DNA of 64,000 bases from Cyanidioschyzon merolae (taxonomy: Eukaryota), in assembly GCA_000091205.1 (NCBI GenBank), contig AP006500.2, one strand, 5' to 3'. A model generated the notes under the pieces. The model had not been told where the DNA came from. It was given only the letters and a program-made list of their open reading frames with translations, and searched no databases. Shown here piece after piece: positions 31,608-57,037 of this stretch (positions within the stretch are counted from its first letter, which is position 1; each line of letters opens with the position of its first letter). The translations under genes and the position numbers were made by a program.

Positions 31608-31671
31608 GGTCAATAGCAAACACGTTCGAAGTGCGTTCATTTGAAGAAATAAAAAAAATTCAAGGGAAAGG
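31608..31671 (-). promoter_or_regulatory. Conserved upstream element, copy A (306-369 bp upstream of the ABCG start codon)
   Basis: The reverse complement reads cctttcccttgaattttttttatttcttcaaatgaacgcacttcgaacgtgtttgctattgacc. It is about 85% identical to 56975-57037, including an identical 26-mer atttcttcaaatgaacgcacttcga. Confidence 0.5.
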
Positions 31672-33338
31672 TACGAACATGGACGTCCGGAATCCTGAAG
31701 GGCTGTCATCGTCGGGTACCGGAAAACACGAAAGAATATCCACTTGGCTCGGACCAACATGCGAAGAAGAGCGAGTAACGAAGAAGTAGGAGAGGGGATA
31801 TGGACGAGAAAAAGTGTTTGCTCGACGGGACGATGATGAGCCTGTAGTGGCACAGGGGGCGCGAATTTCAGGAACCCCTGCACTGATGAGTTCAAGCAGA
31901 GGCAATAAACACATGGAGGTCGGGAACCGAAACTTCAGCGCCGCCATTAATATCAGACGACATGCGGTGCCGAAGACGAGACTCGCAGAGCAGTCTCTCA
32001 GGCTCGAGATGTGCAAGGATGAACTGAAACCGATTGCAATCGGCTGGTCACAAAGGGCTACGATGCGTCTGCGCGCAAGTGTATGTATACCCTCTATGGT
32101 CGTAGAACGCTGATCGTTTCACTGGTATGTACCCGCCCACAATGGAAACGAGAATTGAAGGCACACCTCAAGGCTATTGTAACTACTCCATTGCGAACAA
32201 GGTCATCATATTCGTGTTTGCAATAGTCTCGTTTGTTCGCGTCTACATCGGCAGCATGAAAGAGATCGTCAGAAAGCGCATGCCGTGCATCGACGCTGTC
32301 TTCACTCAGATAACCGCCGTATGGGCGCTTGTCGGAGAAATCCTCTTAACCGTCGCAGTGGCAGCGGGCACTTCTCGCAACAGAAACCGCTGCCGGCTTT
32401 TCCCTGGATTGAATTCGGGTTGCTTTTGTTCGCATGGATGATAACGCTCGGGCGTGTCTGAAGATGCCAGGAGCGGGACACTCGTGAAGAACGATCCCAT
32501 TCCGATACAGCTGGGGCCCCGAAACCACTTCCGAGTCCCTGACGCGTTTCCTTCCGAAGGGGAGCACAGCGAATGGCCGGCAGACCTTGAACGTCCAGTG
32601 CGGAATAGCGGACGCTCTCCCGGATGCTGGCAACAATCGCGCCAGTGAGAGTCGTTGGTTTGTGTAAACGATCCTACACCTTAAAAGAACTGAAGCGTTC
32701 CTCAGCGTTCCAGGTTATGTGGATTCTGGCCAGGCCTCCTCTTTTCATGGAGCAGGTGTCCTGGAAAGAGCGTCCTCCCTCAGAGATGACGCCAGGAGCA
32801 CAGACGCACTGTAGACGAGACCAGCTTCCCAAGTAGTCCTATTTGTGTCTGGTCCCCTGATGCGAAACGCGATACCCATGTCTGGGTTTGATGACATTGT
32901 CCCAGAGCTCCACGGCCGCTCAGCAATTACATATCTCACTGGATGTGTGTCAACGTAGATGCATCGCTCCGGTGGTGACAGGTCTGCAGGAGGCGCACGC
33001 GCGCGCACAGCGGCCGATCTCGCGCACTGACCGAAATAGCCCACCGAATGGGGGAGAGCGCCCGCGCGCTCGCCGCCGCAGCGCGCGCACGGCTGCGTGC
33101 GTGTCCCCGATCAGCCGGCCAGTCGTCCAGAGGATCGCACCAGCGTCCGATTTGGAAGCGGCCGCACACCAAAATTGGCCTCGGATCGATTTAGGCAGTA
33201 GGTCATTCGCGGCCTGTGTCTCTCCGATCATGAAATGAACTAGTTCGGTGTTTTGGCATTTAGCGGGTGTGCTCTGTGCGGCTTTGATTGCGACAGGAAG
33301 CAATTTTGCTTTGGAACCGTAACCGTGAACCGAAAAGA

Positions 33339-34031
33339 ATGCAGCGGTACGTTACAACAATACTCAGCGTTCTTTTGCTGTGTGGGCTGCTTTTCTCTGC
33401 TCCAGGAGCGATCAGAGCGGAGATCGAGTTGAGTCTGGTGGAGCTACCGCTCGATCTTCACCATTCAATGCCGAACTACCCTTCAGGAAACTTTCCGGCG
33501 CCGTCGCCGCTGCTACCGCACCCACCAGTGTATGACGAGAATCGCACCGCAACACTCATGCTGACTGGAGCGCAGGTGCAGAACAGCAACAACGCCGGCC
33601 AGAACGACTTCGGGGTCGGGGGTGAAATTACGTTCAGCTCGGGAATCAAGTATGCAACTGTGTTCCCAAATGAAGCGCCTGGAACGTTCAAGGTTGTGAA
33701 TGCTACAGAACTACTTTCCAACATTTCCTTCGCATACTTTGTGTACTACAAGCATCCACTGGCACAATACGCATCGCTGAATTTCCCAGCAAGCAACCCG
33801 GTAGCGAGCCTCTACCAGCCTAATCAGCGTAGTCCGAACTATACTGCCGGGGCAGTGGTGATCAAACAGTCGAACGTGATGCCGTCTTCGCACGGGTCGA
33901 TCTACGTGAGCTTCAATGTCTATGACCCACAGAACACATCCCGCGTCCCGAACATCCCGAGCAGTCTACTGGACATGGGTGTTCTGAGCATCTTGGATGT
34001 ACCTTGCTCGGGGGCTGGTATCGAGTGCTGA
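33339..34031 (+). CDS. Secreted, N-glycosylation-site-rich protein of unknown function, paralogue 1
   Basis: ATG verified at 33339. It carries a hydrophobic signal peptide (MQRYVTTILSVLLLCGLLFSAPGAIRA), multiple N-x-S/T sites and a C-terminal ..VPCSGAGIEC. It is colinear and about 45% identical with the downstream gene. Confidence 0.6.
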   Translation: MQRYVTTILSVLLLCGLLFSAPGAIRAEIELSLVELPLDLHHSMPNYPSGNFPAPSPLLPHPPVYDENRTATLMLTGAQVQNSNNAGQNDFGVGGEITFSSGIKYATVFPNEAPGTFKVVNATELLSNISFAYFVYYKHPLAQYASLNFPASNPVASLYQPNQRSPNYTAGAVVIKQSNVMPSSHGSIYVSFNVYDPQNTSRVPNIPSSLLDMGVLSILDVPCSGAGIEC

Positions 34032-34956
34032 CATAGGGATCGGGTTACATTCTTTTCATTGGCTTCATCGCAGGGTGTGCGTGGATCCACCGACAACCAC
34101 TCGCATGTGGTCGTCGTCCAGCACCAAGACGCGAACACGATGCGCATTCGGTTCCGAGACATCGTCAGCAGTGTGTTGGATCGGTTCTGTGAAAATTTTG
34201 GCAAGTAAAATGATACTGGCGTTTGGGGTTTCCAGAATTGATTTTACGGCGCACGACAAGTAAACAGACGAGCGTGTCGATCCATGTCGATGTGATTCGT
34301 CGCCACGCACGCAGAGAATCTCGTTGTTCCTTTCAGATTCAGATGAGCACATCGGTAGTGACTTGTTTGGATTCCACGGACCAGATGCCTAGAAAATGGC
34401 ACACGAGCGTTGGTCAAACGTCCAAAAGAGCTAGAGAAGGAAGGATTTTCAGCATATCCGCGGTGTCTCCTGTTCCACAATTCTGGTATTCTGGTCTTGA
34501 TGCACGCTGGTCGGGGTTTCAGCGATTGCCCTCGTGCAACATTTGCATCCACAAGATCTGCGCGAAGCATGGATTCTCCTATAACGTCGTGAAGTTTCCG
34601 CACCGAGTACCAGAATGTGCCTCAGAGTGCCTGTGCTGGTATTCGGCACCTCGTGTAGCGCGCATACCAGGAAGCACCGCCAGATCAGACGCTGTCTCTG
34701 TAATCCAAATCGGGTTTCTTTCGGGTGCGCCACGCGCGCGGCAGCTGCGTGCAGCGCGCACGCGGACACGTGCACACTCGACACCCAATTTGGACACTAC
34801 AGAGGACCAGGCTCGGGACCGTGCCAGACCGGGATATCCACTCTGTGTGTAGCACTGGACCGCTGCCAATGCGAAAGCTCGTGTGCAATTGCATTTGTCT
34901 TGATATCCCGCTCAGCCAGGGTGAGTTACAAAGATAGTGTTCATTGCGCTTGTACA

Positions 34957-35667
34957 ATGTCTCGCCGACACGCATTGGGTAGCGTTGTATTGCTGGTGTT
35001 GCTCCTCGTGGGAATTCGATGCTGCATATCCGCAGCTGTTTGGCCGCGTTCAGAGATCGACACGGCACTCCTGGAAGAGGTGCTCGGGAGCGTTCGCGTG
35101 ACCGAGTCTCATGATCATGAAAGCATGGAAGGTGTGCCGTCGCCACTCCCGTCGACACCACCGGTTTACGATATGAATCGCACCGCGACTGTGGTCATCA
35201 CAGGTACGCAGGTTGTAAACAGCAACGGTGCCGGGGAGGGCCCCTATGCCTACGGGCTGGGCATCAGCTTCTTGTCAGGAATCCGCTATGCCACGGTGTA
35301 TCCGAACAACGATCCCGGGAGCTTCCGACTCATTAATGCAACAGCTTTGCTGAAAAACAACTCCTTCTTGTATTTCATCTACTACAAGTCTCCGATCGCC
35401 CAGTACTCTGCAGAGAACTCTGCCGGAAGAGCTACCGTTGCGGATTTGTACACTGAAAACCAAACGAATCCGGATTTCGTGTCCGCAGCGGTGATGATCA
35501 AGAGGCTGCGCACCACCACGGGCAATCATGGTGAGTTCTCGGCCACATTCAGCGTGTTCGATCCCCATAATACGTCCGCATTGCCGAACATACCGAATAG
35601 TTTGCTCGATTTCGGCGTTTTAGGAATACAGAATGTGCCATGCGAGAATGCCGGCATCAGCTGCTGA
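34957..35667 (+). CDS. Secreted, N-glycosylation-site-rich protein of unknown function, paralogue 2 (tandem duplicate)
   Basis: ATG verified at 34957. The signal peptide is MSRRHALGSVVLLVLLLVGIRCCISAAVWP. It shares with the upstream paralogue the blocks PPVYD.NRTAT...TG.QV.NSN.AG......G..I.F.SGI.YATV.PN..PG.F...NAT.LL.N.SF.YF.YYK.P.AQY.....NIPSSLLD.GVL.I..VPC..AGI.C. Confidence 0.6.
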   Translation: MSRRHALGSVVLLVLLLVGIRCCISAAVWPRSEIDTALLEEVLGSVRVTESHDHESMEGVPSPLPSTPPVYDMNRTATVVITGTQVVNSNGAGEGPYAYGLGISFLSGIRYATVYPNNDPGSFRLINATALLKNNSFLYFIYYKSPIAQYSAENSAGRATVADLYTENQTNPDFVSAAVMIKRLRTTTGNHGEFSATFSVFDPHNTSALPNIPNSLLDFGVLGIQNVPCENAGISC

Positions 35668-37456: not shown

Positions 37457-38170
37457 ATGGCCCTGTCGTGCTTTTGTGCCAAACGTACTTTCCAGAGCTT
37501 CGATCGAACGCCCCTTCCCGAGTATGAAGAGAACAAGAGGAAAGTGAACGCGATTGAGAGCTCACTGGGGCGTCTCATTCGCGACCTCGAAGCGGTTCAA
37601 TCAAACTGGGTTCGGTTGGGTGACGTCTTGAAAGCGTTCGCATCCGATCTCAGCGGCGCTCTACCTGAATCAAGCAGTGAGAACGTCAAGGATACGTCAG
37701 AGAAGCTGGCAAAGTCCAGCGAGGAGGTCGGGAACGAGTTGCGCCAAACGCTGACGGCGGAAAAAGCGTCCCCCTCGAGTAAGATTCTCAGTTACCTGAA
37801 AGAGTTCCGTAAGCGGCTTGCAGAGTGCAAGCAAAAGTCATCCAAGATGGAGAACCTGGCGAAAGACTACGACGCAAGACGGGCTGTGGTCGATGACAAG
37901 GAAAAGGCGAACACTCCCGAGCCTAAGCTGCAACGCGTTCGTGATCTCATGTATGAGGCGGAGATGAAGTTCCGTGAGGCCGAGAAGAACGTGCTTCAAC
38001 TGCAGAAATCCATCATAGATGACGCACCGTTTGCGTTCGAGGCAGCGATGGTCGGTCTCGCAACCATTCTGGCCGATCGGTCGCGTCTCTTGCAGGAGAA
38101 AGGTACGACATTTCGCACAATTCGCGACGCGCAGCTGGATGCAGTTCTGAAGCGCATCGATTCAACGTGA
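37457..38170 (+). CDS. Hypothetical coiled-coil protein
   Basis: A 237-aa ORF; ATG verified at 37457. It is K/E-rich with a heptad-like composition and no recognisable catalytic motif. Confidence 0.35.
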   Translation: MALSCFCAKRTFQSFDRTPLPEYEENKRKVNAIESSLGRLIRDLEAVQSNWVRLGDVLKAFASDLSGALPESSSENVKDTSEKLAKSSEEVGNELRQTLTAEKASPSSKILSYLKEFRKRLAECKQKSSKMENLAKDYDARRAVVDDKEKANTPEPKLQRVRDLMYEAEMKFREAEKNVLQLQKSIIDDAPFAFEAAMVGLATILADRSRLLQEKGTTFRTIRDAQLDAVLKRIDST

Positions 38171-38699: not shown

Positions 38700-39200
38700 G
38701 TTGGTCGAGTTGCTTCGCTGGGGCCCATACCCTATGCAAATCAGGCCGAGGAGCACTACCGGCGGCACGGAGCTCTTTCATCTGCGAAGAGTTGCTGCCC
38801 GGTGTGCAAGTATTTCGCGCCGGGAAGCGCCCAAGTCAGCGCTCGGCACGCCGCCTTTCACGTCCAGAAACACGACCAGTACTTTATCGAATATTCACGC
38901 CGGCACCAGCGCATTCGCCGTATTCGAGCGCAGACGGATCACGGCACCAGCGAGATCGCGCTTGCCGCTGGGGCGCGTACTGCGATGCGGGTTCGAGGTT
39001 CATACCACGTATCGCCGCCAGCGGTACCGGCATTTCACTGGAAGCGATCGCTGCGATGACGGGAGTGTGCCTCTGAGACTCTATTCCATGCAAACAGAAG
39101 AGACCGGAGCCTCTGGGAGCATCTCCCGGGCGACGTATCATGGCGCTGCCGTCGAATGCCGTATTTTGGGCGTCCGCAGAGAGAGACGAGGATTTCGCAT
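38700..39200 (-). mobile_element. Decayed Tc1/mariner-like transposase relic (third copy of the family)
   Basis: The minus-strand translation ...PRGSGLFCLHGIESQRHTPVIAAIASSEMPV... parallels the 19052-19741 relic (PRGSRLCRMHRKGSGARAAVIAAIRFQ). Nucleotides 39095-39130 are reverse-complement-similar to 19140-19175 and to 4855-4880 (cccagaggctcc.gtctct...catgcatcgaa). Confidence 0.45.
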
Positions 39201-40218
39201 TCAGGCCGAATCGATAAATTGACGATACAAGTCTATTGTATTTTCGGCATGAGCTTTTGAATCAGTCACCAGGCGAAGCTGTTGCGTATCTCGCCCCGTC
39301 AATCCAGCGGCGCGAATTGCTGCGCATACGCGTTGCCTCGAAATTGAAGATGCATGATCTGAGCAGGCTGCACCGAATGAAAGGAGATACCTGAAGCCTT
39401 GTTCATGTGCACGAAATCAGAATGTCAGTTATTGAACGAAATTCTGTTCGAGAATATCCCGATTCATATTGATTCCGGTGACGTTAAGCATTCCAGCTGC
39501 CAAGTGTCGAATACACCACTCCGTACCTTACCAGAGAGTCCCGGAACGACGTGGGGATCCCGAATCTCGCTTTGTTCCAATCCGAATCGCAACAGTATGC
39601 ACCTCAAAAATTTCGATATATAAGTCGAAAGACTGTAACAGTGCGATCCGTTCCCTGTTCCACGCCGTACTCTGGCACGGGTGTCATTCAGTACACAAAA
39701 TCCGTTCTTGCCCAGAGGCACCTGGGAGTGCGCCTCCAGCGCTGGCGCTGCTGCTGCTGCTGCGCACCACGGAGGCGTTTCACCGATCTCTTTTTTTAAT
39801 TTCATTGACAGAACGTTTACCTGGGCCAGCGTTCTCCGATTATGCGCATTTTTCTTTTCTTACTATTTTTGTGTGTGTTTTTTTCAGTGCGCGCCACGGA
39901 GGCGTTTCACCGATGCGCACGGATCGCGTAGCGCGGCGCGTGCGAGCGGGAACGCCGGCGCTGCTGGGGTGCGTGCGTGCGCGCGCGCGTCGCCCGTCCA
40001 CGCCGCGCATCGTGATGCTTCGGCGGCCTTCAGGGGCGCGCGCCCGCCGCCTCGCCGTCCGGGGCGCAAACTGCCCATCATCCTTGGGGACGACGATCAT
40101 CGAAGCTGGGCGCTGGCGTCGACGTGCCCGTTCATATAGAGTGTGCGCTGTGGTATTGAGTGAACATCGACTCGTGTCGGGCACAAGGCACACACCAAAT
40201 AAGCTTTCAACACGTGGT

Positions 40219-41628: not shown

Positions 41629-42600
41629 CCCTCGCTGACGGTTGCGAGTCGAGCACATGAGGCGAGCGACTCCATCTTCGTTCGTGGCCTGCATAAGCGC
41701 GACAGCGACTGCCCCTGACACCAACGAATATGGCGTTGGACAGGATGCCACGGCGAGTCGATGCGGCCATACCTGTTGCGTTTCTTTTCTGGCACTCCCT
41801 GAGCTTGGAAGATTGTCACAAGAACCGTATTTCAATCAGCAAGCTGTAGGGCGTGAGCGAGCACGAGCATGTGCGACTTGCTGGCCGGTGCATTTCCTTT
41901 AACCTCATCGCTGCAGCGCCTCGGTCAATGCACCATCAGAGGGATACGCATGCGTCTGTAAATGTCGGAAATCAGGTCGTGTGCCATGGATTCGTCATGA
42001 TGCCTTTTGGGGGCACCATGTGTACGACGAGGTTGGTCAGTGAGGCACGAGGCCACGGCTTCGCCTGTGGCGATTGCATCCGCCGGTGCCGCATGCCGCT
42101 GCCAAGAATAGTTGACGGGAGACAGATCCGGGCCTGTGGGGGCGTTTGTCACGCGGAGCGTCTCGCCCTGCTGGGAAGCGGAACGTCTAAAGTGTCAAGA
42201 AGCTTCGGTTTTAGCGGCATTGGCAAAGAAGTTGTGGCACTACGCGCAGTAATGGAGAACAACGCGACACGATTCGCCTCTACGAACAGCCCAGGAACAC
42301 CGTGCCCAGTGGATATGCAGACGGCGTTGCAGCGTTTCTGGGGTGGTAACGGTACCCTAATCATGCCTTGCGTGTGGCGAGAATCCAACGCCCACTCTCC
42401 TGGCCGCTGATCTTTTTAAATCGAAAATATTCAGCGTTCCAGCACAATACCCACACGGAGTACTTAATGATTTCCTCGAAAGTTCACTTGAAACAAAGAC
42501 GCTAGACGCTGCGGAAGCACGAAGCATTGGCGGATGTTGAGCGGGGCGCTCCAGTCTCGGTTCAGAAGCTGCGCGCGCGCATTGGTACTATACGGGAGAA

Positions 42601-42624
42601 ACACACACACACACACACACACAC
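42601..42624. repeat. (AC)12 microsatellite
   Basis: acacacacacacacacacacacac seen directly. Confidence 0.95.
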
Positions 42625-45272
42625 GCCATAGGCAGCTTCTCAACTTCGATAGCCTCGCCATGAGAAGTTCGATCCACAAAACCTACATAAATCTCGTGCA
42701 TGGTGCTCTGTTCCGCTCTCTTCTTCTCTACCTGTTTCAGCGTACATCCCAGCCCATAATGCGTGTACGTTGTCCTGAACACATTGATGGGAATCGTGTA
42801 GAATCGTTTCCTGCACTCGTTATACGATGTCGTCGATTGCGCGTTAGTGCAGCGCTTGTGCGCTCAAATACGTCCATGTCGTTGACAACCACCATGAAAC
42901 AACGCGACTCGTCAGTACTTTAGTTTTTCGGCTCCTTGAATAAGTTGGAAGAATGCGCAAGTCGTCTGGGTGCGCGCAACCGAACGCGTTGGCGAGACCA
43001 GCACAGACTCAGGTACTCCTGGCAAAAATCGTCTGCGTGAGGCAGTTGGACGCTCATACAATCTCTGAATAAAGCGCGCACAGCATTGTCCTCCAATCGA
43101 ACCGGTCGCCAGCGCGTAGAGAAGGGTCCTGATGGCACCAGTCCTCTTTTCGCTCAGCGTTGTGGCGTCCACCGTGCCCGTCTGCCCGTAAAATCGGGCC
43201 ACGGAAAAGTCAAAGAGCATTGTCTACGTTTTTGTGCTCAGGTCGTTGCCAATGTGCCTTTGATTTAGAGGTACGGAAACGGCGATGACGTCCTTCAACC
43301 AGGGATCTACGCTTAACGCAAATTCTTTCTCTTCATCTACTGTGGACGATGAGAAATATGTTTTGTTCCAGGGCTGAGGCCTAGTTTTGTGAGAGTTCGT
43401 GCAGATTGGTATTCAATTGGTCTCTGTTGCTTCTGTGAGCTTCGTTCCGCGTCATGCAAACATGAAACCACGAGCGGGCTTCGCGAATAATCTTCGCGAT
43501 GTTCCTTGAATGCATCATCGTCGCTCTTTAAGACTGACTCCTTTTTCCTTTTCTTGTTTCCTTTGCGGGATCACATAGATGTGAGCGCTATGCGCCATCC
43601 CTGGTTTTCACTCGGGAGGTGGATTTCGTCGATGGAGAATGGTTCTGAATTCCGCAAGCTGTACGGATGTATCTAGTTTTGCTCAAGTACCTGTTCGTTA
43701 CGTCCTCTGTCGCGAGCACGCCCATGGTCCGAATCGTCTCTTTCCACCGCCACCCGCGCACGAGCAGAGAAGTAACATAGCAGCTCAGGGCTGGCGAAGT
43801 TAGAGAGCGATTTGGAGGAGTATGGTGTTCCAGATGCAAACGACTCGTTTATTGATCCGTGAAGGCAGAATGCCATTTGACAACAGAGAAGAGGCCTTCG
43901 ATTGCATTGGACAGGCTAGACAAGGCAGCCACGAAGCGCAGCTGAGTGCTAATCCCAAATGCACACTCGTTGACCCTAGTAGAGTGGCAAAATTCGATTC
44001 GGCCTACGAGCAGGGCAGAGAAATGTGCGAAGAAGAAGCCACGTGTCGTGCATGGGCGAAGGATGAAGCGTAGAACGATCCTATCAGTTCGGCGAGTTGT
44101 TAGCGACCACAGGATCGCATGGCGGCAACAGCTTAAGATGTCGTCAATTTTGCGTGTTTCTTGTTAACGAGCAGCAGTTTGCCTCTCTTTTCGTACCCAT
44201 GCACAGGTCTTCCGCGTCTCCTGAACGAAGCCTCTTCGAGCGACATGAAGACCGTTCGTTCGTCTCCTGTGGATTCGTAGTTCAGTACGAAATCGGTAGT
44301 GTCTTGATCGACGCTCGACGGTTTCCCATAGGAGCGCGTTTTCTTCTGTGTCCGTTGGTGTCTCTTCATCATCGGTCACATCAACTGTACGGAAATATTA
44401 TATTGTGTAGCTTGTTTGGTATTATTTCTAAGAGAGCGTATGGCGTCGATCGGATTGATGAGACGACATTCGCGTGACTCGAGGTTCATGAGTTTACTGT
44501 CTTGGGTACTCGACCTTCAGAATAAAGACTAGGCGAAGAATGGTTCGTGCAGCAGCTCACCGAAGCACGACTGACTTGTTCAACTGAGACTCGTTCTGGC
44601 GAGCTCATCGTGACAGCGTCAAGTCTTCCCGTAACCTCTCTCCAGTCTCCAAGATACGTTCCTATTACTGAAACCCCGCGAGAGACAAAAACCAAAACAT
44701 TGATCGACGTGCTGCTACAGGAGCTCCAGCAAACACTGCTGTGCATATCTGACGCGTTACCGCTCCCGCTCCAACACGTCTGCGCACTAGCAGCACTCGA
44801 GGCCTGGCGCCTGCGCGATGCCGCCCGTGCTACCAGCACCACCACCAACACCAACACCGCCCTTGCAGCGAACTGTATTCGACTCCAATGTGCTGCAGTA
44901 CGCAATCGCTTGGCTGCACTGCACTGCACTGCACTGCACGAACGGCTGCAAAATACGTTGCCCGTATCTGCGGGGCGCCCTGCAGTGCCCCGCCGATCTA
45001 TGGCACACATCTCTGGCACCGCCGGCGTGCCGGCATCCGTCGACGCCCTTCCCGAATGTTCGCCTCGCCGGCGAGCGCTGAGATTCTGGTACAAAACGCC
45101 TTATCCATCATCTCCGTGAACGGCGTGCGTCCTTCGCGTCTGTGGCGAACAATCTGGGATTTCGACTCGTGCATCAGACAGTGTGAAGAGAGAACCTACG
45201 TCCTGACATCGCTTTGCGGAAAATAGCCCTCCTGAGCACCGCTTGAACGAATTTTGCAGGCTTGGTGGCAGC

Positions 45273-47084
45273 ATGGTGGAGCCCGGAGCCGACGGAGACG
45301 CCGCACTTGCCGAGCAACGAAAGCAACAGGGTAACGAAGCATTCGCCGCCAGAGACTTTGACGCTGCAGTACGCTACTTTTCGGAGGCGATTGAGCTGGA
45401 TCCATCGAATAACGTTTTGTACTCTAATAGATCAGCGGCCTATGCGTCTATGGGCGCATACGAGGAGGCTTTGGCAGACGCAGAGCGCTGTATCGAGCTG
45501 GCGCCGCAGTGGCCGAAAGGATACTCTCGTCGAGGTGCAGCGCTCGCTGGTCTGGGTGAGTTTGATCAAGCCGAAGAAGCCTACCGCCAGGGTTTATCGA
45601 TCGATCCCGATAATGCTGCCCTGAAGAAGGGTCTAGACGAGTTGGCGCAGCTGAGGCAACGAGGTCCAGACTCGGGAGCAGGCGCTGCCGGGGGTTTCCC
45701 CGCGGAGCTGTTGCGAGCCCTGGCCACCAATCCGCGGGCGCGAGAGCTCTTGCAGGATCCATCCATTCTAAGTGCTCTCCAAGGTCTGAACGATCCGTCG
45801 AAACTGATGGAGGTTTTGCGCAACCCGAAAATACAAGAAATTTTCAATTTGATCTCGGGAACGCAAGGGCAAGCGTCACAACAATCGTCGTCGTCATCGA
45901 TTTTTGGAACGGACGCAGGTGGCCGTGATATTGAAGGCGCTCCTGGTCATGAACAGGGAACAGACGAGACATTGAATGCATCAGCGCCTGGTGACAATGT
46001 CGAAGCTGCATCAGAAGCCCCGAGGGCAGGCCCGGAGCAAGCTGTAGCGAACGGCGATACCGCCATGAACGCTGCGGATTCAGATGATGACGGCGACGCT
46101 GATAAGTCTAGTAGAGCTGAAGCTGAACGCGAGAAGGAGCTTGGTAACGCCGCATACAAGCAAAGAAAATTCGAGGAGGCATTGAAGCACTATCGCAGAG
46201 CTCAGGAGCTCAACCCGCGTGAGCTTGTGTACATCTTGAACGAGGCAGCGGTCTACTTTGAAATGAAAGATTATCAAAAGACAATAGAATTGTGCCAATG
46301 GGCGATCGACCGCAATCAAGAGGAGAATCTCGGAGCCGATTTCCCGGTCATTGCGAAAGCGTACGCGCGGATTGCGAGCGCCTACGACCGCCTTGGCGAT
46401 TTTGATGCCGCGATCAAGGCCTACGAGAAGTCGCTGGTGGAGCACCATGACCCACGCGTTGCAATGAAGCTTCAGGACTGTCGTCGGCGAAAGAAAAAGC
46501 ACGAGGAGGAAGCCTACATTGACGAGGAAAAGTCACAAAAGGCGCGCGAGGAGGGTAACGCTGCTTTCAAGGCAGCTGACTTTCCCAAGGCCATCGAGTG
46601 GTATACAGAGGCACATCGTCGCAACCCGCGCGACCCGGTGCCGCTCTCGAATCGCGCCGCCGCGTATATCAAGCTCGGAGAAATCCCGTCAGCGCTGCGC
46701 GACATCGACAAGGCACTCGAGCTTGATCCGAAATTTGTTCGCGCGTACGTGCGCAAAGGCCAGGCGCACATGCTCATGAAGGAGTATCACAAGGCGCTGG
46801 ACGCCTACGAGAAGGGGTTGGAATTAGATCCGAACAACGCGGAGCTGCGGGAAGGCTATGCCAAAGTGCTGGTTGCGATACAGTCGACCGATCATGATCC
46901 TGCGCGCGCTGAACGAGCCATGTCGGATCCAGAGATTCAGTCCATCCTCATGGATCCGCAAATGGGCATTCTCTTGAAGAATATGGAGAGCGATCCATCC
47001 GCTGTTCAGTCAGCAATGAGCAACCCTGGCGTTGCACGTAAGATCCGTAAGCTGATCGCGGCAGGAATCATTCGAACGGCGTAG
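45273..47084 (+). CDS. STI1: Hsp70/Hsp90-organizing protein (HOP/STI1): TPR1-DP1-TPR2A-TPR2B-DP2
   Basis: QGNEAFAARDFDAAVRYFSEAIELDPSNNVLYSNRSAAYA (TPR1). Repeated TPR blocks with KELGNAAYK.., EEGNAAFKAADFPKAIEWYTEA..NPRD..SNRAAAY..LG. C-terminal DP motif ..DPEIQSILMDPQMGILL. ATG verified at 45273 (the track begins at a TTG at 45243). Confidence 0.92.
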   Translation: MVEPGADGDAALAEQRKQQGNEAFAARDFDAAVRYFSEAIELDPSNNVLYSNRSAAYASMGAYEEALADAERCIELAPQWPKGYSRRGAALAGLGEFDQAEEAYRQGLSIDPDNAALKKGLDELAQLRQRGPDSGAGAAGGFPAELLRALATNPRARELLQDPSILSALQGLNDPSKLMEVLRNPKIQEIFNLISGTQGQASQQSSSSSIFGTDAGGRDIEGAPGHEQGTDETLNASAPGDNVEAASEAPRAGPEQAVANGDTAMNAADSDDDGDADKSSRAEAEREKELGNAAYKQRKFEEALKHYRRAQELNPRELVYILNEAAVYFEMKDYQKTIELCQWAIDRNQEENLGADFPVIAKAYARIASAYDRLGDFDAAIKAYEKSLVEHHDPRVAMKLQDCRRRKKKHEEEAYIDEEKSQKAREEGNAAFKAADFPKAIEWYTEAHRRNPRDPVPLSNRAAAYIKLGEIPSALRDIDKALELDPKFVRAYVRKGQAHMLMKEYHKALDAYEKGLELDPNNAELREGYAKVLVAIQSTDHDPARAERAMSDPEIQSILMDPQMGILLKNMESDPSAVQSAMSNPGVARKIRKLIAAGIIRTA

Positions 47085-48339
47085 CGTCCAGGAGTCATCA
47101 GCGCTCGCGGTAACTACGGTAAACACACCTTGGTCTCGCTGAACGACCACGAGGCGCTTGCCTGTGTCTCACGAACAGGAGCCTCGCGCAGCCAAGCGTC
47201 GCTCATATCCCGTGCGCTATTTCTCAACATGGTGCCTGCTCAGCATCCCTTGTGCAGTGACGAGTTATGGATGCCAACTGTTCTTCCGCGAGTCAGCCTC
47301 GTCGACGCACCGTTCGCATACGAGACGCTACGATGCTCTCGTAAGCGTCTACCTACCTGGATACCCATCAATCTACCTACCTGCTTTCCTGCTCGCCTGT
47401 GTGAAGTTGCAAAGCTTAGTGCAGTGACTGCGGGTATATGGACCCGGATGGAGCGCTGGTCTGTGTAAAGAGTCATCAGGTCGAATCTAGTCACAAACTA
47501 TTTATTAAAGAACAACTATCTTAAGGCCCCACACACCACGCCGGCCTAAGAGGTCTAGTTTTTCCAGAGGAGCACTGAAAGTGGATTAACGCCGGGTGTT
47601 TGGGCGACGGGGAAGGAAGCCCACACCAAGGACCTGGACCGTAACGAACGGAGGCGCGGAGGCAGGAGCAGCAGAGAATGATGACGAGAGTTCTGAGTCG
47701 TTATCCGCTGCTCTCGAAACAACGCTGAAGGCTCCGTCGCAAATCCTGGATCCATACTCGAACTCGGGCTCAGTTTTACCTTCTACCATGGTTACCTACC
47801 TCAACTGTGGAAACAGACTCGGCGGATACTTTGGAAGACGGCTGGCGGTATGTTCGCGGTCGAAGCTAGAATAAGCGACTTACCCGCCTATGTGTTTGGG
47901 GAGCGGATTCGAAGCCACTGAAAGGCTGGTTCCTAGACTGTTCCCAGTGGTTGAGGGTAGCTTCACGCGTCCGGAAAGACAAAGGTCGCATTCGAATCGA
48001 CCTTGACTAATGTACTTCTGATTCTACGCTAGCGCTGCGGCAGACACGCAGTGAACGACTGGAATGCAGGAGGCAATGGTGGCGTGTGCTCTCACACACC
48101 CCGTGGAAGGTGCGTCTAAATCGACAACGTATCTCTGGAGTACCGCAGCGTTACTCCTATTCCCTTATGCGCTACGACTCGATAGGTTTCGCATCATGGA
48201 ATATTAGCGGGACCGCCTCGGTATTTAACTACGAGATATCGAATTACTAGTAGAGTAAAGAGGAACTAATACAAGTCGAGGACTCTACAATAGGAAAAGA
48301 GACCCAACGAGGTACGGAGAAGGAGACACAGAAACCTCA

Positions 48340-50700
48340 TGATCCCCTTACATGCAAAATAACCAGAGAAAGCAGCTCAGGAAAGAGCCCGAAGAAGAAA
48401 AAGACCAGCAAGAAAAAAACAGAAGAATAGAAAGAAGAACTCCCAAACGAGCCCATCACAAGGTATCCCCCGAAAGGGCACCCCTGCGGGAACTCGAGAA
48501 AGCCGTCGCCAAACCCAGGCACCTACTCACAACGCTGAAGATCCGAAAAGCCGTGCATGCAAGTCTTTAGACCAATTGGCACGCGAGTTTGTAGATGAGA
48601 ATCAGAAGATCGCCAGAGAACTGGGACTGCTGGCACCAGAACGCAACAGTTGCAATCCGCAGTACCTGAAACGACGTACCAAAACTCGGATTGATGAATG
48701 CTACCGAGTCTATAAGATCGTCAACCGCACCGCCATACACGCCAACGCCGGAGACAAAGAAGCGAAGGCAGCGCTACCGGCGCTACAGGCGCAACATGAG
48801 GAAGCTATCAAAAGAACGAAGAAACTTTCCAGAGAAGACAAACGAGAGGATCGAAACCGCAGAATCGCCTCCCTGACGAAATCTATGCTGGAGAGCACCA
48901 CCGAAGATGAGACCTGGCGCTACATCCGATCGAGACTGAACCCACCAAAAAAGTGCTTGGGGTTCACAGGAATCGTTTACAAGGAAGAGCTGAGGACGGA
49001 GCGTGCCTCAGTGAACGAGGCCTGGACGGACCACTGGACAGAGCTGCATGAAGACGCAACTGGGCACTGCCAAGACCGAATCTATTGGCTCCAATATGCT
49101 GCAGAAGTAGCACGCCTCGAACCGGTACCGGAATGGAACGACCCAATCTTCTGGCCTGAATCTGTCCGGACCCTGCTATGCTCAAGCAACCGCAAAACAC
49201 CTGGCTTTGACGGTATCCCTACGGAGTGGATGAAACTGGTGACCCCAAAAGACGGGACAACAGGGACACCATCGATACCAGATGAACCTGACACAACGTT
49301 AGGTAAACGCCTTGTGGAGCTCATCCAACGCATGTTCGAAGAGGCGTACATCCCGGATGTATGGAGGGCTGCCGAGGTCGTACCGATCCTCAAAAAGGAC
49401 TCCAACACACACACACAGACATGGAAACTACCGGACTATGCGCCTCATCCCGTAAATCATGAAGCTACTTTGCGCCATCCTCACGAACCAGATCCAGAGG
49501 CGCCTCGAGGAGCGCAAGTTCCTTGCCCCAGAACAGGCTGGATTTCGGAGCCGCGAGGAGTGCATGAGCCATGCTCTGACCCTCATTGAAGTGGCGCAAC
49601 GTCGCTCCATTAGCGATCAACAACCAATTTACGTATGCTTCATCGACTTTCAAAAGGTTTTTGACACGGCCCCGCATGAGGCTCTATTTCTGAAGATGGA
49701 ACGAGCCGGAGTCTCCGGAAAGTGCTTAGCGTTCTTCCGTGCGCTCTATGTAGACTCATGGATGCACATGCGACTGGGCGACGGCTCAAGAATCCCTTCG
49801 ATAAGGATCTGCCATGGACTGCGACAGAGCGACCCCGCATCCCCGCTCCTTTTCAACATCTTCATCAACGATCTGCTTAACAACTGCAGACAATACGGGC
49901 TTGAGGTGCCGTGGATAGACTGTGGAGATGCCCGATGAGGAGCCCTCACATAGGAACCGCCTCGCAGGCCTTCTATTCGCGGACGATGTCGTGCTGTTGG
50001 CACCCGCCCCGGAAACGCTCGCGGCAAGCATGCAACAAATCAGCGCCTGGGCCGATCGCTGGGAGATGAGCATAGGAGCATCGAAGTGCGGCGTCATGGT
50101 CATCCATGGAGACTCGCAGCGCATTCGCAGTCGCTCGTGGCGGTTGCAGAATTAGGAAATTCCGATCGTGGAAAAATATCGCTATCTGCAGGGTCTGTCT
50201 CACGCCGACGCTCGACGAAAAGGCACACGTTGACGAGATGATCGCCAAGATGCATAGAGGTACAGCGATCGCACGCCCATTCCTATCCGACCCCTCTATC
50301 TGCATAGCAATCCGTACGAGGGCACTAAGGATGTGTATCATCCAGCCTGCGAGCTGGGGTGCTGAGTGGTGCGGATTGAAGCACCCAAATGCCTCGCCTC
50401 TGCAGACAGCCGCCAACACGGCAATGCGACTCGTTGTTGTTGGATGCTCAATGCAGAGCAGAGCAACCACCGCGCTGACACCCGGACGTGAACTCCAAAT
50501 ACCCTCGACAGAAGCGATAGCAGCAGGCTACCGGGCATGTATACGGGCCAAAGGGCCCACTATGCGCACATGTTTGAGTCGGATTTTCATGCAGACCCCA
50601 ACGCACCGCAAGAACACTTGGATGAAATCAACGCAGATTTGGTTGGAGCGCCTCTTGGGCGAAAATGCGCTCCCCAATCGTTCCCCAGAAATATAGAAGG
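48340..50700 (+). mobile_element. Non-LTR (LINE-type) retrotransposon relic with a frameshifted reverse transcriptase (pseudogene)
   Basis: RT motifs are spread over four consecutive, mutually frameshifted ORFs: ..KTPGFDGIPTEWMKL.. (motif 0), FRSREECMSHALTLIE..IYVCFIDFQKVFDTAPHE (motifs 1-2), GLRQSDPASPLLFNIFIND (motif 4-like), and LLFADDVVLLA (the Y/FADD active-site box). Confidence 0.75.
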
Positions 50701-51826
50701 CTCCCGCCGCCTCAAGCGAACGGTCCAAACAATATGGGAACGTAGACACGGTACCAGTCGCGCCAGTAACGCCGGCTTGACTCTATACCGGAACTGCAAC
50801 CTAGCGTACACATGCAAGCACTGATGGGAGGCGCTGGAATTCCCGGGGCTTGCTCGAGGTACCCAGTGGCTCGCCAAAATCCGCGTTGGTGGCATCTGGC
50901 TACCAGCACCGTCTCTAAGCCGTATAGGAACACTGGAATCGCACTGGGAATCACACTGTCCCTGCTGAGGAAACGAGACCCCCCGAGACGCTGACATATT
51001 TAGGCTTATAGTGCCCGCGCTGGAGACAGGAGCACAGCGAGTTCCTTGAAAGACACTAGCAGCTGGGCATCGCCGTGATAGTCGAAGGCCGGACACTCAC
51101 TCTGAGTGTAGCACTGGCAACTGATGGTCCGCTAACCGAGCCTCAGCGCTCATTAGTGGCGAACAAACTCACACCCTACCTTCTAGGCGCAAGGTCCAGC
51201 GAATCGGATACGCACACGGGTTTAGTGCTCTCTACGCCTACCCACTGGTGGGTGTCAAGCACAAACCCGCATTGCCAACCAACAACAACGCATTCCATGC
51301 ATGATCACGGAGGAGAGAGGCGGCTCCCAGGATATATCCTAACAGCCAAGTTTCTCCAGCGTGTCGTGCAGCGAAGGCAAGCCTGCATCCGCAGGCTGTC
51401 CGAGCACAAACTGACGACGAGACCCGACTCTACGTCGGATGAAGCACGCCTCGAGCCGACGCCCTCTGTGCTATAGAAGAGCCGTTCTAACTCTATGACT
51501 CGTTCGTACCAAAGGTAAACACGCAATTGCGGATGATTTGGACAGTCAATTGGCACAAGATAGGACGTGTGAAACCACCAGAGTATCCTAGAAGAAGTAT
51601 AGCTAAAGTGACTTGAAGGAAGGTGTCGATGGGTGGATACTTCACCGCGCACTGAAAGAAAAGAGAAAGAAAAGAAAAAGCGCACAATCGAGGAACGCTA
51701 CCCGATGGGAACGTTTTGTCTATGAAAAAATCCGCCACCGCTTGGCGGATGCGCACGCCAGGGGAAACGGCGCTCCAGCAACAGCGATTCGAAAGCGGCA
51801 GCGGATCCGCGCTGTGGCAAGGCGAT

Positions 51827-51847
51827 CGCGCACGCGCGCGCGCGCGC
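51827..51847. repeat. (CG)n alternating tract
   Basis: gcgcacgcgcgcgcgcgcgc seen directly, about 190 bp upstream of the Dbf4-like ATG. Confidence 0.9.
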
Positions 51848-52032
51848 TCACTTCAAACCTCGCGCCTGATTGCTCCTCCGAGCGCTGGGCATCCCGTAAC
51901 GAGCTACGCAACTTGCTAACTTGGGGTTTTCACGAGCGAGCTTCCCAGGGCTGAGCTGAACTGGTGTGCTGCACTTGCACCGGCTCGCGTACTGTTCTCT
52001 GCGTGGTGTCCCTGTCTGGCGCTCGCAGTGAA

Positions 52033-53316: not shown

Positions 53317-54128
53317 CCGCAGAGGCAAAAACACATACGTACGTACATGCACACGCAGACGCACACACAAATACGTTGTAAATCAAGCGGCATGTCGTCG
53401 ATAGTTGGCTAAATATCGATGCCCGCTGCGCTGGCCGTAGAAAGTCGTAGACTTTCCCGAACATCGGGAAGAGGCAGCCGTATAGCGGTCGTTCGTGTGA
53501 ATCCAGGCGCCGTGGTTGCGTTGCGCGCCCCAGCACCAACATGCTACCTGTCGTGCCCAGTTTCCAACGCAGTGCACCTCGCACGAGATGGAACCGTACT
53601 GTTAGTCGCGCAGACGCACATGCATGCTATTGGGACTGTCCCCAGGGGCATGAACTGCGCATCACAACGAGCGGTGGTGTTCGAACGGAGCAAGCTACAG
53701 TGCCGTCTTCTTTCCGACGAATGGTGTGCCTGCTCAGGGCCCGTGTTCCGCCCTGGACCAATACACGTGTGAACACCTTCAGAGCATCTCGCGATGTAAA
53801 CGCACCCGTCACAGTGTACGCCTGCTCGCACACGCGCGGTGCTTAAGAAAACTGATGCGCCTTCTTTCAATGATTATGTTCATTGCGCATCTGTCAAAAT
53901 CCCGCATACGCAACTTGCCGGGAAGCAATTCAGCGTCCAATAAACGGTATCAGCGGGGCTTGTGCTCTGAAACGCGATAAAGACCGTGCGTTTCTAGACG
54001 CTCTCTGTTGCGCGCTTGTCTGCGAGTGATGCAATGAGTGGACGCGGATAGCTCAAAGAAAAATCCACGCAGGGTGCAAGCAGTTCGTTGAGGGATTCAG
54101 CGGCAACCGGCTTCGATCCGTGCATCCC

Positions 54129-54149
54129 AGAGAGAGAGAGAGAGAGAGA
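54129..54149. repeat. (AG)n microsatellite
   Basis: agagagagagagagagagaga seen directly. Confidence 0.95.
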
Positions 54150-55002
54150 CAAAAGGAACCTTAAACACCTCTCGTCAACAAGGAGCCGAGTCTGCGTCCG
54201 CTCCTGCCGATGCCTGCGGCGAGCAGAGGCGACACAACCAGAGCGTTGCGTCGTGAAGCGGGAAACCCAGACAAACTCGCATCCGATTTGCCAGACCCCA
54301 TACTTCGAGGGATTGGATTCGATTTGATCGGGCCTAACCTACCTAGTTCATGATAAATCGTTCGCTCAACCTGCTAGATGCTCTGGTTGTGTGCCGCAGC
54401 AAGACCAACGAAAAAAATACGATAAAGCGTTGCTTGCACCTCGAGCTGACATCCGTGCTTGTACCACAGGGCGTTCCAGCCGCCTTGCGGTGTATTCCAC
54501 GTTGCAGCGATTGTCCATAATAGACGCCCAGTACACGATGAATCACTGCATCTAGCGTACCTCCCGACATGGTGATTGGCCTAGAAGAAACGGAGCGAGG
54601 GCGCGCTCGCACAGGATTCGAGTTGTCTCCCGCTATTGCTGACGAAAATCTCAGGTTCGGATTGTTCCAGTGATTTTCCTCCTCTGCATCCGAACAATAG
54701 CTTCGCCAGGACTCATAGATACACGCAGCGTTGCACATGCATCCACAGCGCCGCTAGACCCCATAGCGTCGCTGGGTGCACTGCGGGCTGCGTATCGCAC
54801 CTGGGATACTTTGTCGCATATCTAACGCACGCACGCATCAAGGGACGTCTGCGGCTGAAACGCAGGGTGCCGCTGCCAGGCGCTCCTCGGTACCGCTGGA
54901 AGGCACTCTGGAAGCGCAGGCCAGTACGCGCACAGAGGCGAAAAGAGGAACACGGGACTAGTGCTGCACCCGATCCGAGTGTTGTCGTCTTGTGTGCCCA
55001 AC

Positions 55003-55797
55003 ATGTCTCGCCGCTACGACCAACGCGTGACGACCTTCAGCCCTGAGGGGCGACTCTATCAGGTGGAGTACGCCTTGGAGGCGATTTCGCACGCCGGCGC
55101 CTGCCTGGGGATACTCTGCTCCGACGGAGTTGTGCTGGCAGCCGAGAGACGCAACCTGTCCAAACTCCTGGATAAAAGAGGTCGCATTACTCGAGCATCG
55201 GAGAAGATGTACGAAATCGATAACCACATAGGCTGTGCGGTAGCGGGTATCACAGCGGACGCAAACGCACTGATCCAGAAAGCGCGTCTTTTCGCGCAGC
55301 GCTACCTATATACCTATAACGAGCCGGTACCAGTTGAATACCTGGTTCAACAAATCGCCGACGCGAAACAAAGCTACACACAGTTTGGCGGATTGCGACC
55401 CTACGGCGTTAGTTTTCTGTTCGCGGGCTGGGACAGACACCTCGGTTACCAGCTCTATAACAGTGATCCCAGCGGGAACTACGGTGGGTGGAAAGCAATT
55501 GCGATTGGTCAGCACCATGCTGCTGCGAATAGCATGCTTCGACAAGAATATCCCGAGAACCCCGAGGCCATGCCGACCATGAAGGACGGTATGCGGCTGG
55601 CAGCCAAGGTGTTCGCTAAGACCATCGATTTGTCTATTCTCGATGTGGAGAAACTTGAGTTCACCAGGGTGTGTCCTCTGGATGCGTGCACGAACGCGAA
55701 CATTTTGTTTCACAATGTAAGTGATGAGGAGCTGAAAAGCGCGTTCGAGGAGGTGAAGCGAGAACTGGCGCAGGCGTCGGGCACGGAGAACACCTGA
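55003..55797 (+). CDS. PSMA4: Proteasome subunit alpha type-4 (alpha3)
   Basis: MSRRYDQRVTTFSPEGRLYQVEYALEAISHAGACLGIL...YTQFGGLRPYGVSFLFAGWD..YQLYNSDPSGNYGGWKA is nearly colinear with metazoan/yeast PSMA4. ATG verified at 55003 (the track starts at a GTG at 54961). Confidence 0.93.
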   Translation: MSRRYDQRVTTFSPEGRLYQVEYALEAISHAGACLGILCSDGVVLAAERRNLSKLLDKRGRITRASEKMYEIDNHIGCAVAGITADANALIQKARLFAQRYLYTYNEPVPVEYLVQQIADAKQSYTQFGGLRPYGVSFLFAGWDRHLGYQLYNSDPSGNYGGWKAIAIGQHHAAANSMLRQEYPENPEAMPTMKDGMRLAAKVFAKTIDLSILDVEKLEFTRVCPLDACTNANILFHNVSDEELKSAFEEVKRELAQASGTENT

Positions 55798-56350
55798 AGC
55801 TGCTCGTGACAACGTGGCCTACGCGGAACGCCCAAGTCTTCACTACCAGAGCCTGGTAACACGAAAACACAACGAGATCAGACGAGGAATCCGTCGGTAT
55901 GGATTGCTGGTGCGAGAACGAACCATATCGCGTGCTCTACCACGCGCGGCATGCCACAGCGCACCTGGCCAGACACCTGTTTGCGGCACCTGGGTACAGT
56001 TTGGCACCAGCGACGGTCGCCTGCTACACATATTCTTCGACGCACGGCTATGGAACATGTCGCGATTCAGATAGAGCTGCGCTACGAAGGACGGTATCTG
56101 TTAGGGTTCCGCATCCCCTGCCGCTTCCATGCATGCCACTGCGACTTTGAGGTGCTTTCAACGCCCCCGCCAGGCGCTTTTACGCACGGACTTGCGTCCA
56201 TGAATGTAAGTGCGTACAGCGTTTTCCGATCGACCGAATGTTTACCTGAACAAGGTGATCCTCGATTGCACGATGATGATGATGATGACGATCGGCATCA
56301 AGTGAAGCATCTGCCAAGCCACGCCAAAGCCTCAGCTTCCATGTGCTAGC

Positions 56351-56406
56351 CATCACCATCACCACCACCATCACCACCACCATCACCACCACCACCACCA
56401 CCACCA
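56351..56406. repeat. (CAC/CAT)n triplet microsatellite
   Basis: catcaccatcaccaccaccatcaccaccaccatcaccaccaccaccacc seen directly; a (GAT)n run lies just upstream at about 56275-56295. Confidence 0.9.
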
Positions 56407-56974
56407 GCCGCACTTCCCGTTGGCGTAATACGTTCGTGCCCACAATCCTTGGGCAGATGCGTGTTCTCGGGGAGCGCTCGAAGTCATATCCAGCACCAGT
56501 GCTGATGCCGCACTCAATCAGAGGCGCTTTGGTGTTTACCGCTGATCAGCGAAACGAAAAACGTTTCACGACCATATAGGGTAAATACACATACCCACGC
56601 ATAGACGCCTACCGGCCTTTTTCGACTGGCCGCCTTCCAGCGGTTTCAGTCCATCCAGGCACACTTTGACGTGAGACGCTTCCCCCAGAAAGTTAGAACG
56701 CGTCAGCGCCTCCGGGCTCGTGTTCAGCGCCACACATCTTCTGGTATTGGTGGTGGCGTCAGGTCTCGGTTCACGAACTCACCAGTGCAAGCATTCCTCG
56801 AACTCGTACCCTGAATGCCACTACAGTCTCGTGATCATCCCGTCGGCCAAAGACCTTTTCTCGCCTATCTGCCCGCTTCTTCGCTCGATTGTCAACGAGA
56901 AGGGAATTTTTTCGCTCTTTTCTCGGGGAGCCAGCGATGACGACGCTCCCGGCTCCCTGACTTGCATGCCCGCC

Positions 56975-57037
56975 CCATTTCCCTCAGATTTTCTATTTCT
57001 TCAAATGAACGCACTTCGAGTACGTTCGCTATAAACC
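56975..57037 (+). promoter_or_regulatory. Conserved upstream element, copy B (341-403 bp upstream of the PGAM-like start codon)
   Basis: ccatttccctcagattttctatttcttcaaatgaacgcacttcgagtacgttcgctataaacc. It has the same orientation relative to its downstream gene as copy A. Confidence 0.5.

Follow-up and report, generated by a model that had tools for sequence, protein, structure and literature searches.

The window analysed here, a 64,000-nucleotide stretch of Cyanidioschyzon merolae DNA, contains two copies (A and B) of a non-coding repeat with a unit length of about 575 bp. Copy A is positioned upstream of a gene encoding an ABCG half-transporter, and copy B upstream of a gene encoding a histidine phosphatase (PGAM-like). 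Both copies contain the same core box of 26 nucleotides (nt) near their 3' ends, and they belong to a dispersed family of at least nine copies, none of which was found in about 103 kb of DNA of the sister species, Cyanidiococcus yangmingshanensis. The family is likely a decayed lineage-specific mobile element in promoter-side DNA. The copies in the window and the features of their 3' parts are as follows:

31551..32124, minus strand: copy A, 574 bp; blastn match to copy B with E=4e-46; nhmmer score of 556-608 bits, depending on the profile; ends agree with those of copies C, D1, and E
56547..57094, plus strand: copy B, 548 bp; detected by blastn and nhmmer; boundaries common with the other copies
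31626..31651, minus strand: core box of copy A, a 26-nt run matching copy B exactly
56994..57019, plus strand: core box of copy B, a 26-nt run matching copy A exactly
57030..57035, plus strand: putative TATA-like hexamer TATAAA of copy B, 10 nt past the core, read from the alignments

The core box belongs to a larger repeat unit

The exact 25-mer ATTTCTTCAAATGAACGCACTTCGA is present at two sites in the window, 31626-31650 on the minus strand and 56995-57019 on the plus strand. No occurrence is expected by chance according to shuffling, even with three mismatches permitted, and a preceding T extends the identical run to 26 nt. A previous sequence-only reading of this DNA described the shared run as part of a 65-bp block with unrelated flanks, positioned at similar distances upstream of two genes. 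The exact match, the distances from the ATG codons of the ABCG gene (at 31302) and the PGAM-like gene (at 57378), and the same orientation of both sites relative to the downstream gene were all reproduced. However, gapped alignment, blastn, and MAFFT/nhmmer show that copies A and B each form one homologous unit of 574 and 548 bp, respectively, and the similarity continues for about 480 bp upstream and 55-60 bp downstream of the 65-bp block. The blastn alignment of the two copies spans 582 columns. In the MAFFT/nhmmer alignment, 360 of the 520 ungapped columns are identical (~69%), and the alignment is interrupted by indels of 25, 28, and 23 nt.

Within the unit, conservation is highest in the 65-bp block, which lies near the 3' end. 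Given the 69% identity of copies A and B, the probability of an exact run of at least 25 nt is about 0.015, and this pair of copies is free of motif bias. The core is thus a modest conservation island within a much larger repeat. The TATA-like hexamer that follows it in copy B is loosely conserved, and the corresponding positions read TATTGA in A, TACAAA in D1, GATAAA in E, and TATATA in F1.

A dispersed family of repeats with common boundaries

The motif was searched for elsewhere by scanning the 22-mer TTCTTCAAATGAACGCACTTCG against public metagenomes, and the loci were assigned by nhmmer and megablast. Seventeen loci were found, seven of which are site A (four contigs) and site B (three contigs). 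The remaining ten collapse to four new genomic regions. The family has at least nine copies in at least five genomic regions of the source species. The copies outside the window are:

L014 5208-5784: copy C, full length
L018 4895-5493: copy D1, full length
L023 7674-8270: copy E, full length
L013 5170-5723: copy F1, full length
Copies D2, D3, and F2: partial
L021: copy G, on a chimeric-looking contig

Independent pairwise alignments of six full-length copies from unrelated loci agree on both boundaries to within about 12 bp. The unit length, the common boundaries, and the multi-copy dispersal are therefore established. The sequence-only reading had named membership in a common interspersed repeat as a finding that would refute its proposals, and the 26-mer is now seen to be essentially part of such a repeat. 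The copies are 62-71% identical to each other in a star-like pattern. Conservation along the element is fairly flat, with 55-77% identity per 30-column window. At the 5' ends the sequence is TAC..CAGTGAAACGA, and at the 3' ends it is ..GGTCAAAGAC. The first 14 nt of the element, GAAACGATCAGCGT, resemble a motif family named 'D3', GAAACGACCAGCGT; the likeness stops at 14 nt, and it was set aside as a coincidence. Copies D3 and F2 stem from a secondary duplication in which 0.9 kb of downstream sequence, including an open reading frame (ORF), was copied as well. Where two copies share a contig or lie on contigs that overlap, they have opposite orientations (F1/F2, D1/D2, and D1/D3).

Copy B was recovered at 99% identity in six same-species contigs (L001-L003, L011, L017, and L024). 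A hidden Markov model (HMM) built from nine sequences detects no third copy in the 64-kb window. Copies A, B, C, D1, E, and F2 have an intact 22-mer and copies F1 and G a decayed one, and the number of sites with the intact sequence in the source species is estimated at about 6-8 from a rough capture-recapture calculation based on the overlap of metagenome samples. The core motif does not occur outside the repeat within the window, a scan of viral contigs for the core gave zero matches, and a literature search returned no description of the repeat family.

The contig with copy G (L021, JGI24721J26819_10030350) has an unusual structure. Within its positions 1-3559, a segment corresponding to window positions 30489-31672 (99.7% identity) is joined to a second ABCG-like 5' region (84%), which is followed by the copy of the element. 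The join could be either an assembly chimera formed at the repeat, or a sign that the sample contains a paralogue of the ABCG gene or a closer relative.

The family is younger than the split from the sister species

The family HMM has no match in about 103 kb of sister-species DNA (best E=0.23). Conservation in related species, which had been proposed as a check of the shared element, is not seen: the sister species has no trace of the element at the orthologous sites upstream of the PGAM-like, ABCG, and NDUFS8 genes, neutral DNA being saturated at that distance. The region between NDUFS8 and its divergent neighbour is 245 bp long in the sister species, and in the source species the NDUFS8 ATG and the start of copy D2 are 55 bp apart. 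The gene downstream of copy D2 was sought by way of the adjacent NDUFS8, for which the single recorded contig ends 154 bp upstream of the gene. The spacer between the proteasome and PGAM-like genes measures 1837 bp in the window, in contrast to 827-1037 bp in the sister species.

Four-fold degenerate sites are 32% identical between the two species, which corresponds to saturation. Because of this, copies that share 67% identity are younger than the split, if they evolve neutrally, and the flat decay profile makes constraint over the whole element unlikely. Both its absence from the sister-species DNA examined, orthologous sites included, and an age below the species split are regarded as shown. 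The common end points at unrelated loci, together with the absence from the sister species and the star-like divergence, indicate an amplification burst of a mobile element.

Position and orientation of the copies and a possible regulatory role of the core

The distances from the 3' ends of the copies to the start codons of the next genes are:

Copy A, ABCG half-transporter: 248 nt
Copy B, PGAM-like protein: 283 nt
Copy C, J-domain protein: 145 nt
Copy E, prefoldin subunit: 131 nt
Copy D1, Alg14: ~80 nt (position of the start inferred)
Copy F2, ORF of 175 amino acids: ~0 nt
Copy G, ABCG-like gene: ~1 kb

All these copies are oriented toward the next ORF. Copies A, D2, and F2 are located in divergent intergenic regions, 17 to ~120 nt from the start of the gene behind them. 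The shortest of these distances is that of copy A, between its 5' end and the start codon of a small ORF on the plus strand. Copy B starts 749 nt past the stop codon of the proteasome alpha gene. The co-orientation with the next gene is suggestive, holding at best for five of five informative sites (p ~0.03). The core argues better for constraint than the orientation does: both copies in the window carry the identical 26-mer on a background of 69% identity (p=0.015), and the core is better conserved than neutral decay predicts.

It is possible, although we do not count it as the expected outcome, that the core of this probable mobile element makes a cis-regulatory contribution to the adjacent genes. 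More far-reaching, and doubtful, is a lineage-specific mobile promoter cassette in which one factor would bind the 22-26-bp box together with the TATA-like region next to it. Such a cassette would wire the ABCG, PGAM-like, J-domain, prefoldin, and Alg14 genes into a common, possibly stress-related programme, in an extremophile whose genome is streamlined, and would act as a bidirectional promoter between divergent genes. A heat-shock element was considered for the core and discarded, since on inspection the spacing of TTC and GAA does not fit nTTCnnGAAn. The strict form of the shared cis-regulatory module put forward in the sequence-only reading is not supported, as within the window the motif is confined to the repeat, the family is missing at the orthologous sites of the sister species, and the core is decayed in copies F1 and G.

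Origin of the repeat

The 5' ends of the copies in the window contain small predicted hairpins, which were considered together with the coding and RNA potential of the repeat:

32104..32120, minus strand: 5'-terminal hairpin of copy A, GAAACG..CGTTCT; weak; from the RNAalifold consensus
56551..56567, plus strand: 5'-terminal hairpin of copy B, GAAACG-AAAAA-CGTTTC; 6 bp, -5.2 kcal/mol, z=-2.4

Copies C and E contain uninterrupted sense ORFs of 211 and 208 codons, respectively, and gene callers place small ORFs inside copies, as might be expected if the family were pseudogene copies of a protein-coding gene, on the sense or antisense strand. However, the open frames of C and E are mutually out of register, with a phase shift at each indel, and the indels are not multiples of three. 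A tblastx comparison of copies A and B gives equal scores in six frames, with stops in every frame; there is no three-base periodicity across the six full-length copies; and Pfam has no match on the element. A protein-coding origin was rejected because the six-frame tblastx, stop counts, periodicity, frame tracking in C and E, and Pfam were all negative, and pseudogenes are scarcely credible as an explanation. It is also very improbable that the copies are a family of non-coding RNA genes, each with its own transcription unit, that lie upstream of protein-coding genes by coincidence. A discrete unit, a sense strand poor in stop codons in some copies, and a small 5'-terminal hairpin with base pairs differing among copies would all be compatible with RNA genes. 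In contrast, a scan of the whole window against Rfam gives zero matches at the gathering threshold, copies A and B have no relevant match at E up to 5, and the covariation term of RNAalifold for six copies is a penalty of +6.5 kcal/mol, with most pairs broken in one or two of the six sequences. The hairpin itself is weak (4-6 bp, -2.4 to -5.2 kcal/mol), occurs at the same place in six of eight copies, and is not statistically established; MAFFT placed its stems out of register in copies F1 and D2. Moreover, identity of 65-70% combined with many indels of 20-30 nt is unlike a constrained RNA. A structured RNA was therefore rejected on the negative Rfam and RNAalifold results, save for the weak terminal hairpin.

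Two further explanations accept the family as it is described here and differ in how it spread or whether it serves any function. An upstream region that is not mobile could have been spread by segmental duplication or gene conversion and selected for co-regulation of genes. The promoter-side, co-oriented placement of the copies, the conserved core box, and the evident duplication of D3/F2 with 0.9 kb of downstream sequence including an ORF all speak for such a module. It is nevertheless improbable: six full-length copies with the same end points at unrelated loci are unexpected from independent segmental duplications, nearly the entire 575 bp has drifted at a similar rate, the element is absent from the orthologous promoters of the sister species, one of which is just 245 bp long, and the star-like divergence suggests one burst. 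Alternatively, the same decayed repeat could be a purely neutral relic without function, its position and orientation reflecting tolerated insertions and its intact cores chance and ascertainment. This is a possibility to be taken seriously, if not the one we would choose. It agrees with the flat conservation along the element, the loss of the core from by-catch copies F1 and G, the lack of use of the motif elsewhere in the window, the poor conservation of the TATA-like hexamer, and the fact that most intergenic DNA is promoter-side anyway. However, a neutral relic does not readily account for the 26-mer kept at p=0.015 in two of two window copies, the sole sample unbiased by the motif. Six sites with an intact 22-mer, out of the estimated 6-8, would call for a family of hundreds of copies if evolution were neutral, yet the HMM detects no further copy in the 64-kb window. 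Furthermore, every readable copy is co-oriented with the next gene.

A decayed mobile element is likely to explain the family as a whole. A non-autonomous element would have amplified after the split from the C. yangmingshanensis lineage, and its copies would have been inserted into promoter-side intergenic DNA by a copy-and-insert process. The copies may then have drifted to about 65-70% pairwise identity while being retained mainly in the orientation of the downstream gene. The 3'-proximal core box may have been constrained in a subset of copies, and it could lend a protein-binding site or promoter/5'-leader sequence to the downstream gene. The footprint of a small non-autonomous element, which was among the possibilities raised previously, is the best-supported reading of the shared sequence. 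The readable copies are on the promoter side, pointing to genes.

Several observations weigh against this explanation. None of the structural marks that define transposon classes survives. There are no terminal inverted repeats, as the first 40 nt compared with the reverse complement of the last 40 nt give local scores of only 4-7 in six full copies. No k-mer of 5 or longer that could be a target-site duplication is shared between the two ends in copies A, B, C, and E, and copy F1 has one 6-mer on both sides, which is at chance level; divergence of 30% could have erased such duplications. TG..CA termini are not present, and inspection of either end on either strand found no consistent A-rich or simple-repeat tail. 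ARAGORN identified no tRNA-like head or nearby tRNA gene in the window and the metagenome loci, and Rfam, at E up to 5, likewise gave no sign of the tRNA-, 7SL-, or 5S-derived head with a Pol III promoter that marks a SINE. No autonomous partner was found, and no presence/absence polymorphism was seen, as all same-species contigs carry copies. The number of copies is a lower bound from about 120 kb of the source species. The positional evidence is limited as well: divergent intergenic regions are uninformative on orientation, leaving few informative sites; several of the neighbouring ORFs are putative genes; and a location on the upstream side of a gene says little in a compact genome in which most intergenic DNA is promoter-side. 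Copies C, D1, E, and F2 were found with the 22-mer itself, so that the conservation of their cores is subject to ascertainment bias, and the core is decayed in the by-catch copies that retain the core region (F1 and G).

Genes around the two copies

The genes next to the copies in the window are:

29239..31302, minus strand: ABCG half-transporter gene, downstream of copy A; Pfam ABC_tran and ABC2_membrane
57378..58406, plus strand: histidine-phosphatase (PGAM-like) gene, downstream of copy B; Pfam His_Phos_1; homologues in Cyanidiophyceae
32142..32441, plus strand: small ORF of 99 amino acids, candidate gene, divergent from the ABCG gene and adjoining the 5' end of copy A

The closest named relatives of the PGAM-like and ABCG proteins are from C. 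yangmingshanensis (83% identity) and Cyanidium caldarium, and relatives at 98-99% identity are found in metagenome contigs only. The product of the 99-amino-acid ORF scores 26.9 bits against Pfam MARVEL, under the cut-off of 32.8. Among 1.8 billion representative proteins it has one weak match (E=6e-5) besides a representative that is 99% identical.

The sister species has the same order of genes between DnaJ and P4-ATPase but a different one around the ABCG gene. The window has a synteny break between 31302 and 39469. Here a distance of about 8 kb separates the ABCG block from the DnaJ-STI1 block within a single contig; in C. yangmingshanensis the two blocks are on separate contigs (JANCYV010000006 and JANCYV010000015). 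The ABCG gene has other neighbours in that species, encoding a Mot1-like SNF2 protein and a pseudouridine synthase. This breakpoint region adjoins copy A. A (CCACCA/CCATCA)n microsatellite is located at 56350-56406, about 140 bp upstream of copy B, and similar tracts are present at 28626, 44833, and 60681.

Other promoter-side spacers are also much longer in the window than in the sister species. The distance from STI1 to zf-DBF (window 47084-51964) is 4.9 kb as opposed to 0.6 kb, and that from zf-DBF to the proteasome gene is 1.7 kb as opposed to 0.8 kb. The 3'-3' spacer between the PGAM-like and WD40 genes is of equal size in the two species (292 and 266 bp in the window and the sister species, respectively), and the WD40/P4-ATPase spacer is likewise alike in size, at 657 and 619 bp.

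Other repeats in the same regions

The regions that contain the element also hold other degenerate lineage-specific repeats that are absent from the sister species, and the lineage has clearly undergone mobile-element activity. Repeat family X is present at 18636-19868 on the plus strand, 39020-39587 on the minus strand, and 4751-5819 of the window, and at 6795-8032 of contig L018, with 61-65% identity among copies. Its ORF at 19052-19741 has a weak, sub-threshold match to DDE_3 (Tc1/IS630-like transposase; E=0.005), and family X is probably a decayed DNA transposon. The HMM of the studied element has no meaningful match to the copies of family X (best E=0.005 over 77 internal positions).

Repeat family Y is found at 42257-44764 of the window, and in contigs L018 (8220-11057), L014 (595-3956 and 8565-10499), and L023 (6-1000). 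It is about 2.5 kb long, has 57-59% identity among copies, and contains no long ORFs; Pfam searches of its ORFs were negative. In the window it occupies the DnaJ-STI1 spacer, which is 3.6 kb long compared to 1.6 kb in the sister species, and three of the four new regions have it alongside the studied element. No reverse transcriptase or integrase domain was found in the repeats neighbouring the element, in about 120 kb of DNA of the species.

A direct repeat of 1528 bp (4321-5848 and 10113-11640; 99.3% identical, spacing of 5792 bp) flanks the gene for glycine dehydrogenase (GcvP) at 6348-9554 on the minus strand. It is far younger than the other repeats of the window and is partly related to family X. 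The repeat could enable deletion or amplification of GcvP, or it could be a feature of the assembly or of a recent duplication. A tandem array of 115-bp units with near-identical central copies spans 23892-24581 and immediately precedes a gene on the plus strand with its start near 24564. Within the unit is the motif GAAACGACCAG, which is also present at 5042, 10834, and 51571. Comparison of the element HMM with family X, the tandem array, and the copy at 51.5 kb revealed no relation.

Two plus-strand ORFs without a Pfam match, 33288-34031 (247 amino acids) and 34615-35667 (350 amino acids), have 3' halves that are 58% identical in DNA over 535 bp, and they look like a tandem pair of lineage-specific paralogues. 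An inverted match of 70 bp with 80% identity connects 39800-39869 and 51659-51727, upstream of the DnaJ and zf-DBF genes, and a 27-bp repeat is found at 39761 and 39888. These sequences may represent another small shared upstream element.

Significance of the repeat family

The Cyanidiophyceae are models of minimal eukaryotic genomes and, to our knowledge, are usually described as nearly free of transposable elements. The family described here is one of several degenerate repeat families, absent from the sister species, with which one lineage inflated its promoter-side intergenic regions. If the core is functional, the family offers a compact and testable case of repeat-driven promoter evolution, and tools for the transformation of C. 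merolae exist. Should the core have no function, annotation ought to mask the family, and the 26-mer should not be read as a transcription-factor site common to the ABCG and PGAM-like genes.

Comparison with known mobile elements

The repeat is an unclassified member of the general kind of interspersed repeats, or non-autonomous elements. It fails the defining structural tests of solo long terminal repeats (LTRs), miniature inverted-repeat transposable elements (MITEs), and SIDERs, and was filed under none of them.

Introners of algae and fungi resemble the family in being lineage-specific bursts of a short repeat with an orientation bias relative to the host gene. However, the copies described here are located upstream of the ATG, outside the coding sequence; the 5' GT is missing in several of them (C and D1, with GC in B and F1), and a polypyrimidine tract is absent. 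The genomes of Cyanidiophyceae are extremely intron-poor.

Helitrons and Cryptons have neither terminal inverted repeats nor target-site duplications, and Helitrons have a short hairpin near one terminus. The repeat has a sub-terminal hairpin near its 5' end, which is the 3' end on the other strand, in six of eight copies. The copies do not consistently show the canonical Helitron termini, 5'-TC and CTRR-3', or an insertion site between A and T; the reverse-strand end reads ..GCGTAT, and the hairpin has just 4-6 bp. Neither a Rep/helicase nor a tyrosine recombinase was seen. With a sub-terminal hairpin but neither terminal inverted repeats nor target-site duplications, the repeat could have had a Helitron-like or Crypton-like origin.

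MITEs, such as mPing in plants, are defined by terminal inverted repeats and target-site duplications. Like the family studied here, they are short non-autonomous repeats that gather in the 5' flanks of genes and are able to donate cis-elements. The family differs from them in having neither of the defining features, and the decayed DDE_3-like family X of the same genome has no sequence in common with it.

Solo LTRs of the Tf1/Tf2 elements of Schizosaccharomyces pombe target promoters and are often the sole remnant of an element. They are likewise units of a few hundred bp in a compact genome, positioned a few hundred bp upstream of ORFs and carrying promoter-like sequence. The repeat differs from solo LTRs in the lack of TG..CA ends and target-site duplications, and within the about 120 kb covered neither paired copies around an internal region nor a nearby gag/pol remnant was seen.

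The SIDER1 and SIDER2 elements of Leishmania are degenerate retroposons of about 0.55 kb that occur mainly in 3' untranslated regions and contain a co-opted conserved signature block (PMC2323293, PMC2689281). The repeat shares with them its size, strong degeneracy, intergenic location, and conserved block. It differs in its host, a red alga, and in that copies A, D2, and F2 lie between divergent (5'-5') genes. The SIDERs of trypanosomatids bear a retroposon signature of 79 nt at the 5' end. A trypanosomatid SIDER had been suggested by the unit of about 0.55 kb, the G+C content of 56%, and the long intron-less genes arranged head to tail; it was ruled out by the protein homologues, which are from Cyanidiophyceae. 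By analogy, the behaviour of the family appears nearest to that of gene-proximal solo LTRs, such as those of Tf1 in fission yeast, or of gene-proximal MITEs, and its size and degeneracy are like those of the Leishmania SIDERs.

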